Counted from the stretch's first letter, positions 1,894-48,960 are shown. The stretch is DNA of 52,923 nucleotides from a virus (IMGVR_UViG_2877251553_000008); one strand, 5' to 3'. Made by a program: numbers and translations. The notes: a model not told the origin generated them from the letters alone.

Positions 1894-2117
1894 TTAACCC
1901 CTTGTAATTCATCGCCATAATTGATTTAATTCACAAATAAAACCATAACATGGTGAAATCAATGAAAAAAAACACAGATGATGGGGCTAAAATTTACACA
2001 CCACTTACCCTAAAGCTTTATGACTGGTGGGTTTTGGGAGTATCAAATCGGCTTGCATGGGGGGTGATGCTGCCAACTTACTGATTTAGTGTATGATGGT
2101 GTTTTTGAGGTGCTCCA

Positions 2118-2393
2118 GTGGCTTCTGTTTCTATCAGCTGTCCCTCCTGTTCAGCTACTGACGGGGTGGTGCGTAACGGCAAAAGCACTGCCGGACATCA
2201 GCGCTATCTCTGCTCTCACTGCCGTAAAACATGGCAACTGCAGTTCACTTACACCGCTTCTCAACCCGGTACGCACCAGAAAATTATTGATATGGCCATG
2301 AATGGCGTTGGATGCCGGGCAACTGCACGCATTATGGGCGTTAGCCTCAACACGATTTTACGTCACTTAAAAAACTCAGGCCGCAGTCGGTAA
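2118..2393 (+). CDS. insA: IS1 InsA
   Basis: 91-aa [46 protein letters not shown]... Confidence 0.95.
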
Positions 2394-2815
2394 CCTCGCG
2401 CATACAGCCGGGCAGTGACGTCATCGTCTGCGCGGAAATGGACGAACAGTGGGGATACGTCGGGGCTAAATCGCGCCAGCGCTGGCTGTTTTACGCGTAT
2501 GACAGGCTCCGGAAGACGGTTGTTGCGCACGTATTCGGTGAACGCACTATGGCGACGCTGGGGCGTCTTATGAGCTTGCTGTCACCCTTTGAAGTGGTGA
2601 TATGGATGACGGATGGCTGGCCACTGTATGAATCCCGCCTGAAGGGAAAGCTGCACGTAATCAGCAAGCGATATACGCAGCGAATTGAGCGGCATAACCT
2701 GAATCTGAGGCAGCACCTGGCACGGCTGGGACGGAAGTCGCTGTCGTTCTCAAAATCGGTGGAGCTGCATGACAAAGTCATCGGGCATTATCTGAACATA
2801 AAACACTATCAATAA
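2312..2815 (+). CDS. insB: IS1 InsB (made as InsAB' by -1 frameshift at A6C)
   Basis: C-terminal part ...[22 protein letters not shown]...HYLNIKHYQ; start coordinate approximate. Confidence 0.85.
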
Positions 2816-3261
2816 GTTGGAGTCATTACCTGCATGGGGATGTCCTACAAAGGAACACCTTCTTCCACACTTTCTGGAACATGTAGGTAACAACCATCTG
2901 GATATTGGTGTTGGAACTGGGTTTTACCTTACTCACGTACCTGAGAGTAGTCTGATATCTTTAATGGATTTGAACGAAGCTAGTCTGAACGCGGCATCTA
3001 CAAGGGCTGGGGAATCAAAAATTAAACATAAAATTAGCCATGATGTTTTTGAACCTTATCCCGCGGCGTTACATGGTCAATTTGATTCCATTTCCATGTT
3101 TTACCTTCTTCACTGCCTGCCTGGAAATATATCTACAAAAAGCTGTGTAATACGCAATGCGGCGCAGGCGTAAGCGTACAGCCTGAACCGTCTGGTCAGA
3201 ATCTGACGAATTAGACAAAGTGGTGTCCACCAAATAAGTAGTGGGAACCAAAGTGTCAGAT

Positions 3262-3641
3262 ATGCAGAAAAATGTGAATCCCGGCAGGCGAAAAGGCTGC
3301 CCTAATTATCCTCCCGAATTTAAACAGCAGCTCGTTGCTGCCTCCTGTGAACCCGGGATATCCATCTCAAAACTTGCTCTGAAAATGGCATTAACGCCAA
3401 TCTGTTGTTCAAATGGCGACAACAATGGCGCGAGGGAAAGCTGCTATTACCTTCTTCAGAGAGCCCCCAGCTACTTCCTGTGACTCTCGATGCAGCTGCC
3501 GAACAGCCAGAATCGCTCGCAGAGGATCCGGAAACCCTCAGTATCAGCTGTGAGGTAACGTTCCGGCACGGGACGCTCCGCTTCAATGGCAATGTCAGCG
3601 AAAAGCTCCTGACTCTGCTGATACAGGAACTGAAGCGATGA
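3262..3641 (+). pseudogene. IS66-family orfA (TnpA), frameshifted
   Basis: Two overlapping frames (3241..3483 and 3405..3641) together give ...PEFKQQLVAASCEPGISISKLAL / FKWRQQWREGKLLLP...; one base missing near 3380-3385. Confidence 0.7.
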
Positions 3642-3985
3642 TCCCGTTACCTTCCGGGACCAAAATTTGGCTGGTTGCCGGTATCACCGATATGAGAAAT
3701 GGCTTCAACGGCCTGGCGGCAAAGGTGCAGACGACGCTGAAAGACGCTCCGATGTCAGGTCACGTTTTTATCTTCCGTGGGCGTAATGGCAGTCAGGTAA
3801 AGCTCCTCTGGTCTACCGGCGATGGACTGTGTCTGCTGACCAAACGGCTGGAGCGCGGCCGCTTCGCCTGGCCGTCAGCCCGGGATGGCAAAGTGTTCCT
3901 CACACCGGCACAGCTGGCGATGCTCCTTGAAGGTATCGGCTGGCGGCAGCCTAAAAGACTGCTTACGTCCCTGACTATGTTGTAA
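3638..3985 (+). CDS. IS66-family orfB (TnpB)
   Basis: 115-aa ORF MIPLPSGTKIWLVAGITDMRNGFNGLAAKV..., start overlaps the orfA stop (ATGA). Confidence 0.8.
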   Translation: MIPLPSGTKIWLVAGITDMRNGFNGLAAKVQTTLKDAPMSGHVFIFRGRNGSQVKLLWSTGDGLCLLTKRLERGRFAWPSARDGKVFLTPAQLAMLLEGIGWRQPKRLLTSLTML

Positions 3986-4033
3986 GCCTCTTTATCCTGG
4001 TCGACGCTGAATGAGCCTGGTAATATACCCGGT

Positions 4034-47339: not shown

Positions 47340-47430
47340 CACAAAAAGAAAACAAAGTATCAAAAATCACTTGTCACACCTTGATACCTTAGTTACCATA
47401 AAACAAAGTTCGTAACTGAGGTATCATCTC
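47340..47430 (+). promoter_or_regulatory. second operator-bearing promoter region (OL/pL-like) downstream of cI
   Basis: Same half-site core as the cI-cro region: AGTATCAA 47356-47363, TTGATACC 47381-47388 (inverted pair), GGTATCA 47420-47426. Confidence 0.45.
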
Positions 47431-47675
47431 ATGTTCAATAAAGCTACAACTCTTGACTGTCTCGAAGAACTGAAAAACCTCGGCAGCCTCATTACACTAA
47501 TAGCAAAAGCAACACCTGATGCTACGCTCTCTAGCGATATAGAGTCATGCGCAGGACTGGCATGGGATATGACAAATAGCATATCCAGAAAGCTATCGTC
47601 AGCAATGCTTTTACAGAACAAAAATTCTGCAATCAACAACCGTCTTCGCACCCAACGCGAAGCCTGCGGCTTAAC
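47431..47675 (+). pseudogene. first early-left gene (unknown function), 3' end cut by IS911
   Basis: ORF MFNKATTLDCLEELKNLGSLITLIAKATPDATLSSDIESCAGLAWDMTNS... continues into the IS911 end; not Arg-rich, so not an obvious N homologue. Confidence 0.4.
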
Positions 47676-47683
47676 TGAAGTGG

Positions 47684-48523
47684 TCAACAAAAACTGGCCA
47701 CCGAGTTAGAGTTTTTCCAGTATCGATTTTCCGATTCGTTTGGGGGTAACCCACCGTTATATTCGTGCGGTCTTAGTGCGCTGTAATATCCAACGATATA
47801 GTCCGTTATGGCGTGAGCTGCCTCGCTGAAGCTTACGTAACCCACCACCGGCATCCATTCGTTCTTCAGACTCCTGAAGAAGCGTTCCATTGGGCTGTTA
47901 TCCCAGCAGTTTCCGCGCCGGCTCATACTCTGTCTGATCTGGTATCGCCACAATAACTGCCGGAACTGCCTGCTCGTATAATGACTGCCCTGATCGCTGT
48001 GGAACATCACCCCGCCGGGCTTACCACGGGTTTCCCATGCCATTTCCAGCGCTTTCATGGTGAGCCTGCTGTCCGGCGAGAACGACATGGCCCAGCCCAC
48101 TGGTTTTCTTGCGAACAGGTCGAGAACAACGGCGAGGTACGCCCAGCGCTTACCCGTCCAGATACAGGTCACATCACCGCACCACACCTGATTTGGCTCG
48201 GTCACGGCGAACTGCCTTTCAAGGTAGTTAGGGATAGCAACATGTTCATGACCACCACGTTTATTCCGGTGAGTCGGCTGCTGACAGCTGACCAGCCCCA
48301 GCTCTTTCATGAGCCTGCCAGCAAGCCAGCGTCCCATCTGGTAGCCTCTCCGGGTTGCCATTGTGGCGATGCTTCTTGCTCCGGCCGAACCATGGCTGAT
48401 GCCATGTAGCTCAAGTACCTGACTGCGTAATACAGCCCGTCTGCCGTCTGGTTTTTCAGGACGGTTTTTCCAGTATCTGTAGCTGCTGCGATGAACCCCG
48501 AACACTTGGCAGAGTGTGACCAC
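47684..48523 (-). CDS. insO: IS911 orfB transposase (InsO; made as orfAB fusion)
   Basis: 279-aa ORF with DDE domain ...[31 protein letters not shown]...[10 protein letters not shown]... Confidence 0.9.
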
Positions 48524-48549
48524 AGGATAATGCGCTCTGAGTTTCCCGA

Positions 48550-48852
48550 TTATCGAGAACTGTTCAGGGAGTCTGACATCAAGAGCGCGGTAGCCTTTTT
48601 TAATATTTCATTCTCCATTTCAATGCGTTGTAGCTTTTTCCTCAGCTTACGTATTTCGATTTGTTCTGGTGTTATCGGAGAGGCTTTTGGTGTTTTGCCC
48701 TGACGCTCATCACGCAGTTGTTTGACCCATCTTGTCATTGTGGAAAGGCCAACATCCATAGCTTTGGCGGCATCTGCCACCGTGTATTTCTGGTCAACAA
48801 CCAGTTGAGCGGATTCGCGTTTAAACTCTGCGCTAAAATTTCTTTTTTTCAT
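48550..48852 (-). CDS. insN: IS911 orfA (InsN)
   Basis: [49 protein letters not shown]... Confidence 0.9.
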
Positions 48853-48960
48853 TGGAGCACCTGTGTTGTTCTGAGGTGAGCATATCACCTCTGTTCAGGT
48901 GGCCAAATTCAGTGTGCCACTTCAGTGTTATGTTCAACCAGTTACTTAAACAGGTAAGAA

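Follow-up and report, generated by a model that had tools for sequence, protein, structure and literature searches.

Insertion sequences (IS) have multiplied throughout Shigella: IS1, IS2, IS4, IS600 and IS911 are expanded in every species, IS1 is the most abundant of them, S. dysenteriae Sd197 has an additional IS66-family element, ISEc8, and Shigella pseudogenes arise through IS insertions and deletions (Hawkey et al. 2020, PLoS Genet, PMC7373316). Here we consider the stretch IMGVR_UViG_2877251553_000008, 52,923 nucleotides of viral DNA (below, the window is this whole stretch at its full length), and the IS pieces that it contains. It carries four of the five expanded elements (IS1, IS2, IS600 and IS911), IS4 being absent, and its IS66-family element is ISEc22-like (99.3% identity), unlike the ISEc8 of Sd197 (88–91%). 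Sequence comparison makes it very probable that the window is a single complete lambdoid prophage at the btsS–mlrA (yehV) site of a Shigella dysenteriae genome, and that the IS set usual in Shigella is breaking this prophage down, through two simple IS1 insertions and several deletions anchored at IS ends. Compared with Shigella IS decay in general, this is one prophage locus of an S. dysenteriae lineage whose chromosomes measure 4.6–4.8 Mb, with no difference in kind.

The window is taken for a whole prophage at btsS–mlrA because of its btsS end and the neighbourhood of integrase and mlrA in related genomes. Position 1 is directly upstream of btsS, and an mlrA remnant and the prophage end (a DinI-like gene and a serine acetyltransferase gene) come next. 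The final base belongs to the stop codon of a tyrosine integrase, and the same integrase adjoins mlrA, yohO and yehW in the E. coli relatives. The structural half is lambda-like: 97% of positions 6539–31500 align at 96–97% to E. coli prophages, the identity to isolated phages such as PhiR5_1 being about 92%. The other half, with the early, regulatory and lysis genes, is similar to Stx-converting phages (89–91% at about 55% coverage) and contains the Q gene, a DNA methylase gene, three tRNA genes and nanS-p; no stx gene is seen among the genes called in it. The NCBI record CP026825.1 is 100% identical to the window over 6,279 bp, and CP026807.1 and CP026834.1 are 99.9% identical to it. In the 5,426 complete E. 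coli genomes, no single place covers at least 80% of the IS-bearing pieces of the window. A sequence-only reading of this DNA had recognised a repertoire typical of Shigella and related E. coli; an origin in Shigella is supported by this absence from E. coli, by the match to CP026825.1, by the protein spanning the IS911 junction, whose record bears the name Shigella, and by the agreement of the IS set with the published one (PMC7373316).

The seven IS pieces total 7,484 bp, or 14.1% of the window (Table 1). The interval given for them earlier, 2063–48924, runs exactly from the first base of IS1a to the last base of IS911, and the count of seven was also correct, as self-BLAST with all seven pieces and the full IS600 gives no extra partial copies. 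The non-IS stretches longer than 514 bp all align to relatives that have no IS annotated at that place by the NCBI Prokaryotic Genome Annotation Pipeline (PGAP), and the parts of the window outside the coverage by relatives are at most 514 bp each. The elements were identified by Pfam and NCBIfam and by PGAP names at 99–100% DNA identity. The assignment to five families was wrong: there are five IS species but only three ISfinder families (IS1, IS3 and IS66), because IS2, IS600 and IS911 are members of a single one, IS3 (NCBIfam transpos_IS3; PGAP names).

Table 1. IS elements in the window, their target duplications and the genes adjoining or interrupted by them (positions are those of the window; nt, nucleotide of the element; ORF, open reading frame; SAM, S-adenosylmethionine)
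Feature	Position	Strand	Description
SAM-dependent methyltransferase pseudogene, class I	1950-3170	+	Pfam Methyltransf_12/25/11; colinear with the intact 222-aa gene of L002 (4562-5230) and L010
IS1a	2063-2830	+	768 bp, complete, IS1SD isoform; Pfam InsA and DDE_Tnp_IS1; 99.6% to PGAP "IS1-like element IS1SD family"
IS1a target duplication TGCATGGGG	2054-2062 left, 2831-2839 right	.	read directly
ISEc22-like (IS66 family)	3171-5609	+	2,439 bp; ends GTAAGCG...CGCTTAC; tnpA, tnpB, tnpC; 99.3% to a clean E. coli copy in L003
IS600 fragment A	5610-5862	+	nt 1012-1264 (orfB 3' end and right inverted repeat); 100% over 253 bp to the 1,264-bp IS600 of L004
IS600 fragment B	5863-6538	-	nt 676-1 (left inverted repeat, orfA, 5' part of orfB); 99.4% over 676 bp to the IS600 of L004; Pfam HTH_Tnp_1, HTH_21
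Tail-fibre assembly (tfa) gene remnant	6539-6587	-	first 49 nt (16 codons) left, beside the left end of IS600 fragment B
DUF1327/YdfR-family ORF	31641-33204	-	split by IS1b; about 268 aa after removal of the IS and one repeat copy
IS1b	31730-32497	+	768 bp, complete, other isoform; 100% to IS1 copies in many E. coli genomes
IS1b target duplication ATTGCATCC	31721-31729 left, 32498-32506 right	.	read directly; empty-site colinearity
WYL-domain gene, C-terminal remnant	37896-38104	-	69 of 205 codons; window 38104 = L008 2197; L008 gene 1989-2606; PGAP WYL name in other relatives
IS2	38105-39435	+	1,331 bp, complete; orfA, orfB, A6G site
Helix-turn-helix (HTH) gene, 5' part	47431-47675	+	first 81 of 166 codons; window 47675 = L001 20328; L001 gene 20084-20584
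IS911	47676-48924	-	1,249 bp, complete; ends TGAAG...CTTCA; orfA, orfB, A6G site; NCBIfam IS3 family; 99.8% to PGAP "IS911 family"

Only the two IS1 copies are clean insertions, as had been proposed. Each is flanked by a perfect 9-bp target duplication (TGCATGGGG for IS1a, ATTGCATCC for IS1b), and each has a colinear empty site in IS-free relatives. The flanks of IS1a align to L002 at 4256–4674 and 4666–5004 and to L010 at 3590–4008 and 4000–4338, that is, with 9-bp overlaps (4666–4674 and 4000–4008, respectively) inside an uninterrupted methyltransferase gene. When IS1b is removed together with one copy of the repeat, the flanks join without a gap to L023 and L031 at 97.6% and align unbroken to L001 and L009 at about 96%. 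In other respects the copies are also like the known IS1: the same length, imperfect terminal inverted repeats of about 23 bp of the GGTGATGCTGCCAACTTACTGAT type, open insA and insB' frames, and the A6C frameshift site TTAAAAAACTC, read in each of them. The domain matches are Pfam Zn_ribbon_InsA, HTH_Tnp_IS1 and DDE_Tnp_IS1 and NCBIfam transpos_IS1. The two copies differ at 68 of 768 positions (91.1% identity) and thus represent two isoforms rather than a single source element copied twice.

Both interrupted genes had been described as cleanly split single ORFs, one of a methyltransferase and one of the lysis cassette. The first does have IS1a in codon 38, but its 3' end is also truncated, since the left end of ISEc22 cuts it after about 148 of 222 codons. 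The second is indeed a single ORF split by IS1b, but its membership in the lysis cassette is by position only, as this DUF1327/YdfR ORF is situated between the genes for a class II holin and a lysozyme/endolysin. The DUF1327 assignment comes from the Pfam match of the gene called in the sister locus L022; there was no NCBIfam match. Two IS1 elements of different isoforms have arrived here by simple transposition, each making a 9-bp target duplication and each interrupting one non-essential accessory gene.

A different arrangement is found at the methyltransferase site in CP045784. There the IS1 is chimeric (L017 7984–9148, corresponding to window 2063–3170), with the first approximately 480 bp of the IS1a type and the rest of the IS1b type. 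Next come 7 bp and then a partial IS1 of 390 bp directly adjoining ISEc22, an arrangement that replaces the segment 2831–3169 and the right-hand copy of the repeat. Either recombination between two IS1 copies accompanied by a further deletion, or a mis-assembly, accounts for this structure.

The IS66-family element, IS2 and IS911 have no target duplications, in agreement with the initial observation; this is evident from direct reading of their flanks. The proposal that IS-mediated deletions had occurred is supported as well, since at each IS without a duplication the two flanks are found in the IS-free relatives too, unchanged in order and orientation but separated by additional DNA. At the three sites the flanks are 97–99.7% identical to the relatives, and as both order and orientation are kept, the events are deletions, and not inversions or translocations.

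The IS2 copy yields full-length NCBIfam matches (PRK09413 TnpA, 1–121 of 121; PRK09409 TnpB, 1–301 of 301). It is flanked by CTCAT and GTAAC and so has no 5-bp duplication. On its right side is the gene for the Q antiterminator, IS2 ending 13 bp downstream of the Q stop codon, and on its left side is the remnant of the WYL-domain gene. The element replaces 462 bp, as the left flank stops at L008 2197 and the right flank restarts at L008 2660; the lost DNA comprises the N-terminal 136 codons of the WYL gene and most of the spacer after Q. At least 80% of a 4,000-bp query made of the joined flanks is held in one place by 130 genomes, and it spans 4,462–4,468 bp in the closest full-length E. coli relatives among the matches listed. 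To see whether a late promoter downstream of Q had been lost with these 462 bp, the stretch was scanned in L008 for sigma-70 promoters and terminators; this simple scan found nothing. A clean copy, 100% identical to the IS2 of the window and flanked by the 5-bp duplication CTTTG, is present in PSSQ01000001 (L018 12770–14100), in the tail-fibre gene at the place of window positions 6843–6847. This extra insertion is strain-specific and occurs only in PSSQ01.

The WYL-domain gene is a target of two different IS in two lineages: in E. coli 266917_2 (L001 9589–11544), the same gene downstream of Q has been independently interrupted by ISVsa5 (IS10-like).

IS911 has AAC and GTG at its flanks in place of a 3-bp duplication, and a clean copy with the same ends in L042 lies between two GGA repeats. 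In the window IS911 takes the place of 1,934 bp in the early-left region: the left flank stops at L001 20328 and the right flank restarts at 22263 or 22264, the spacing in L009 being the same as in L001. Lost are the C-terminal half of the helix-turn-helix gene and three small genes. The remaining frame of this gene continues for 11 codons into the right end of IS911, forming a chimeric ORF of 92 aa, and this chimeric protein is recorded as WP_000482082.1, named Shigella dysenteriae / MULTISPECIES Shigella.

The third site is a cluster of the ISEc22-like element and two IS600 fragments. ISEc22 matches Pfam TnpB_IS66, DDE_Tnp_IS66 and zinc-finger and leucine-zipper domains, as well as NCBIfam models, and its end-to-end alignment to the L003 copy demonstrates that both terminal repeats are present. 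It has the same genes and ends as the known element, but there are differences. Firstly, the clean copy in L003 has the 8-bp duplication CAACATGC on both sides, whereas here the flanks are GCGCAGGC and AACTGTTA. A deletion of 2,661 bp explains this, and the difference lies in the insertion site, with no bearing on which element this is. Secondly, tnpA lacks 1 bp (after position 3379 of the window) and another 3 bp that the L003 copy has; the gene is frameshifted in this assembly and intact in the sister genome CP026807, which does not have the 1-bp deletion. The left end of ISEc22 adjoins the truncated methyltransferase gene, and its right end adjoins nt 1012 of IS600. Compared with E. coli NCTC86 (L010), the cluster replaces the 2,661 bp between the methyltransferase flank, which stops at 4338, and the tail-fibre flank, which restarts at 7001. 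This segment contained the 3' end of the methyltransferase gene, a recombinase fragment, an alternative module of the tail fibre and two tfa genes, of which one was lost entirely, while 49 nt remain of the other. The latter gene, at L010 6516–7049 on the minus strand, is the source of the remnant in Table 1, since window position 6539 corresponds to L010 7001.

Together with the recombinase fragment, the invertible tail-fibre segment of NCTC86 belongs to what was lost where the ISEc22/IS600 cluster now is. Window positions 6756–7531, the constant part in the C-terminal region of the tail fibre, also match the alternative module of that segment in inverted orientation (NCTC86 L010 5771–4996). 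Inside the tail-fibre gene, at 8294–8788, there are four copies of a degenerate 33-nt repeat, 67–82% identical to the reference copy, which probably reflect a repeated peptide motif.

We considered whether other boundaries of IS2, IS911 and ISEc22 could restore the duplications, and rejected them. The clean reference copies share exactly the ends given in Table 1, the alignments of the empty sites stop at the same bases, and copies with these ends have proper duplications elsewhere. In particular, the IS2 and IS911 of the window are 99.8–100% identical to copies with 5-bp and 3-bp duplications, respectively, and here both are situated at deletion junctions without them.

In the classical adjacent deletion caused by an IS, or in recombination between IS copies, one IS end is exact, and the neighbouring DNA is lost together with the target duplication. 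The IS sites of the window are alike in the end product, and such end products are what is seen here. IS2, IS911 and the ISEc22/IS600 cluster are very probably each the end point of an insertion and a deletion anchored on an IS end: one end of the element is kept exactly, and the adjoining DNA (462, 1,934 and 2,661 bp, respectively) was lost with one copy of the target duplication. The route may be intramolecular transposition, causing an adjacent deletion, or recombination between two IS copies in the same orientation. For the 462-bp IS2 case we prefer adjacent deletion to recombination between copies.

While identities, boundaries, the presence or absence of duplications and the deletion sizes relative to IS-free relatives are direct observations, we infer the deletion routes and the order of events, and three considerations count against this explanation. 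For none of the elements was an intermediate found in which the IS still has its duplication and its flanks are undeleted, and hence insertion followed by deletion has not been observed as such. The IS-free comparators are E. coli prophages 95–99% identical to the window, and not its true ancestor, so the exact deletion sizes vary with the relative used. Finally, the two candidate mechanisms are indistinguishable from the end product.

Of the alternatives to parts of this explanation, the one that survives best concerns the two IS600 fragments. The initial observation was that two IS3-family fragments abut in opposite orientation. The orientation is confirmed, and both fragments are IS600, but the join is at 5862/5863 and not at 5857/5858, which is 5 bp off. 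There is no complete 1,264-bp IS600, as nt 677–1011 are absent, and the two inverted fragments do not overlap and do not form a functional copy. The tip of the right end (nt 1264) is joined exactly to the inverted nt 676. Neither this junction nor the one between ISEc22 and IS600 is contiguous in any of the 5,426 complete E. coli genomes. In our description of the left cluster, IS600 would first have been rearranged, or else would have been the target of a second IS600, and the ISEc22 event would then have removed IS600 nt 677–1011, or nt 1–1011 if there were two copies.

One possibility, which we hold to be plausible but somewhat less probable than its negation, is that both fragments are one copy, whose own segment nt 677–1264 was inverted by intramolecular transposition targeted at the element itself; there would then be six insertion events in all. 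The fragments are indeed non-overlapping parts of IS600 (nt 1012–1264 and nt 1–676), the join of nt 1264 to the inverted nt 676 is what is expected from the segment 677–1264 flipped in place, and, as said, this junction is not contiguous in the E. coli genomes. On the other hand, a second IS600 inserted at nt 676/677 of the first one yields the same junction. The left side, which would be diagnostic (nt 677–1011 and beyond), has been removed by the ISEc22 event, and the mismatches, none of 253 positions in fragment A and four of 676 in fragment B, are uninformative. The corresponding statement about the junction itself, that the join preserves a footprint of IS600 attacking its own interior and is not a nested double insertion, is put forward tentatively, as an unlikely rather than a leading interpretation.

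A junction of the same kind as that in the IS600/ISEc22 cluster, with one IS inside another, is seen upstream of yehS in other genomes, about 4.58 Mb in size (L013, L015 and L019, positions 1–1138), where the right end of IS2 (nt 1060–1331) abuts nt 867 of IS600, inverted.

Next in plausibility is the timeline suggested by the sequence-only reading, in which both IS1 copies came in one recent wave and the events involving IS2, IS911, ISEc22 and IS600 are older. The IS1 copies do retain open frames as well as perfect duplications. For each of them CP026807 has a near-identical copy (one mismatch) a few kilobases outside the window, and no other IS is as abundant in Shigella as IS1 (PMC7373316). 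Nevertheless, we consider this timeline rather improbable. Junctions were scored in those parts of the prophage that were fetched from each of them. IS1a, ISEc22 and both IS600 fragments are also present in CP026807, CP026834 and PSSQ01, and, with a rearrangement by which the right-hand flank of IS1a is lost, in CP045784. The junctions of IS1b, and likewise IS2 next to Q, are found in CP026807, CP045784, CP026834, CP026823 and CP026805, and the IS911 junction is found in about ten genome-scale records. Since the junctions are the same in all sister genomes examined, with no difference in presence or absence, nothing orders the events in time.

Further, IS1a and IS1b, being different isoforms at 91.1% identity, did not come in a single wave from a common source. 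The IS2 of the window is base-for-base identical to the new, strain-specific IS2 of PSSQ01 with its clean duplication, and thus IS2 has been as recently active as IS1; judging by this identity, IS2 transposition is ongoing in this lineage. IS2 and IS911 are intact, as is ISEc22 in CP026807, and a single deletion event suffices for the loss of a duplication, with no elapsed time needed. Hence a missing duplication is a record of a deletion that occurred after or along with the insertion, not of elapsed time.

The quality of the assembly has to be considered separately. The window differs from CP026807 mainly by eight single-base gaps, each of them a base missing from the window. They are located after positions 3379, 27585, 30396, 30929, 33292, 34926, 47044 and 50600, and affect the tnpA of ISEc22, the genes for Rz, the holin, nanS-p and the cI-like repressor, and three other sites. 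Apart from these gaps, Q is split both in the window and in CP026805 but intact in other sister genomes. This pattern suggests homopolymer errors of this assembly and not real pseudogenes. Given this imperfect base-level quality and the odd chimeric IS1 at the first site in CP045784, one might suppose that the junctions without duplications are themselves artefacts, produced by repeats collapsed or mis-joined at IS copies. This is extremely improbable, as the junctions recur, wherever that part was fetched, across several complete assemblies independent of each other (CP026807, CP026825, CP026834, CP026823, CP026805 and CP045784) and also in PSSQ01, and as parts of the protein beside the junction are encoded in draft contigs. 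Moreover, the flanks follow a single prophage colinearly and without a change of orientation, and each IS is full length with exact ends.

Hardly any weight can be given, either, to the notion that nothing was deleted and that the 462, 1,934 and 2,661 bp are accessory genes gained later by E. coli phages: lambdoid phages are mosaic and the regions concerned do carry accessory genes, but the breakpoints match the IS termini to the base and truncate ORFs that are intact in the relatives (the HTH gene is cut at codon 81 of 166 and the methyltransferase gene at 148 of 222, while 69 of 205 codons remain of the WYL gene and 16 of tfa).

The S. dysenteriae genomes that carry this prophage also contain a second lambdoid one (L032, L035, L037, L039, L041), with an identical 349-aa DNA methyltransferase and a similar region from Q to nanS-p. 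There Q has no neighbouring IS2, and near DUF1378/DUF826 there is an element of the IS3 family that is probably IS600. This second prophage is a possible recombination partner for the prophage of the window.

Overall, the decay of the prophage by insertion and IS-anchored deletion is ordinary and of an already known kind, and nothing in it departs from known IS biology. Its value is mainly in annotation, as the exact IS boundaries and three measured deletions are now available, and there is little in it beyond bookkeeping. There are two cautions as well: the absence of a target duplication says nothing about how old an insertion is, and frameshifts of this assembly may be sequencing errors. 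If the IS600 fragments did arise by self-attack, this would be a natural case of self-destructive transposition that helps to limit the copy number of IS600 in Shigella. Irrespective of that, the locus provides a fully resolved textbook example of how the Shigella IS set degrades a prophage, by simple insertion and by deletion anchored at IS ends.

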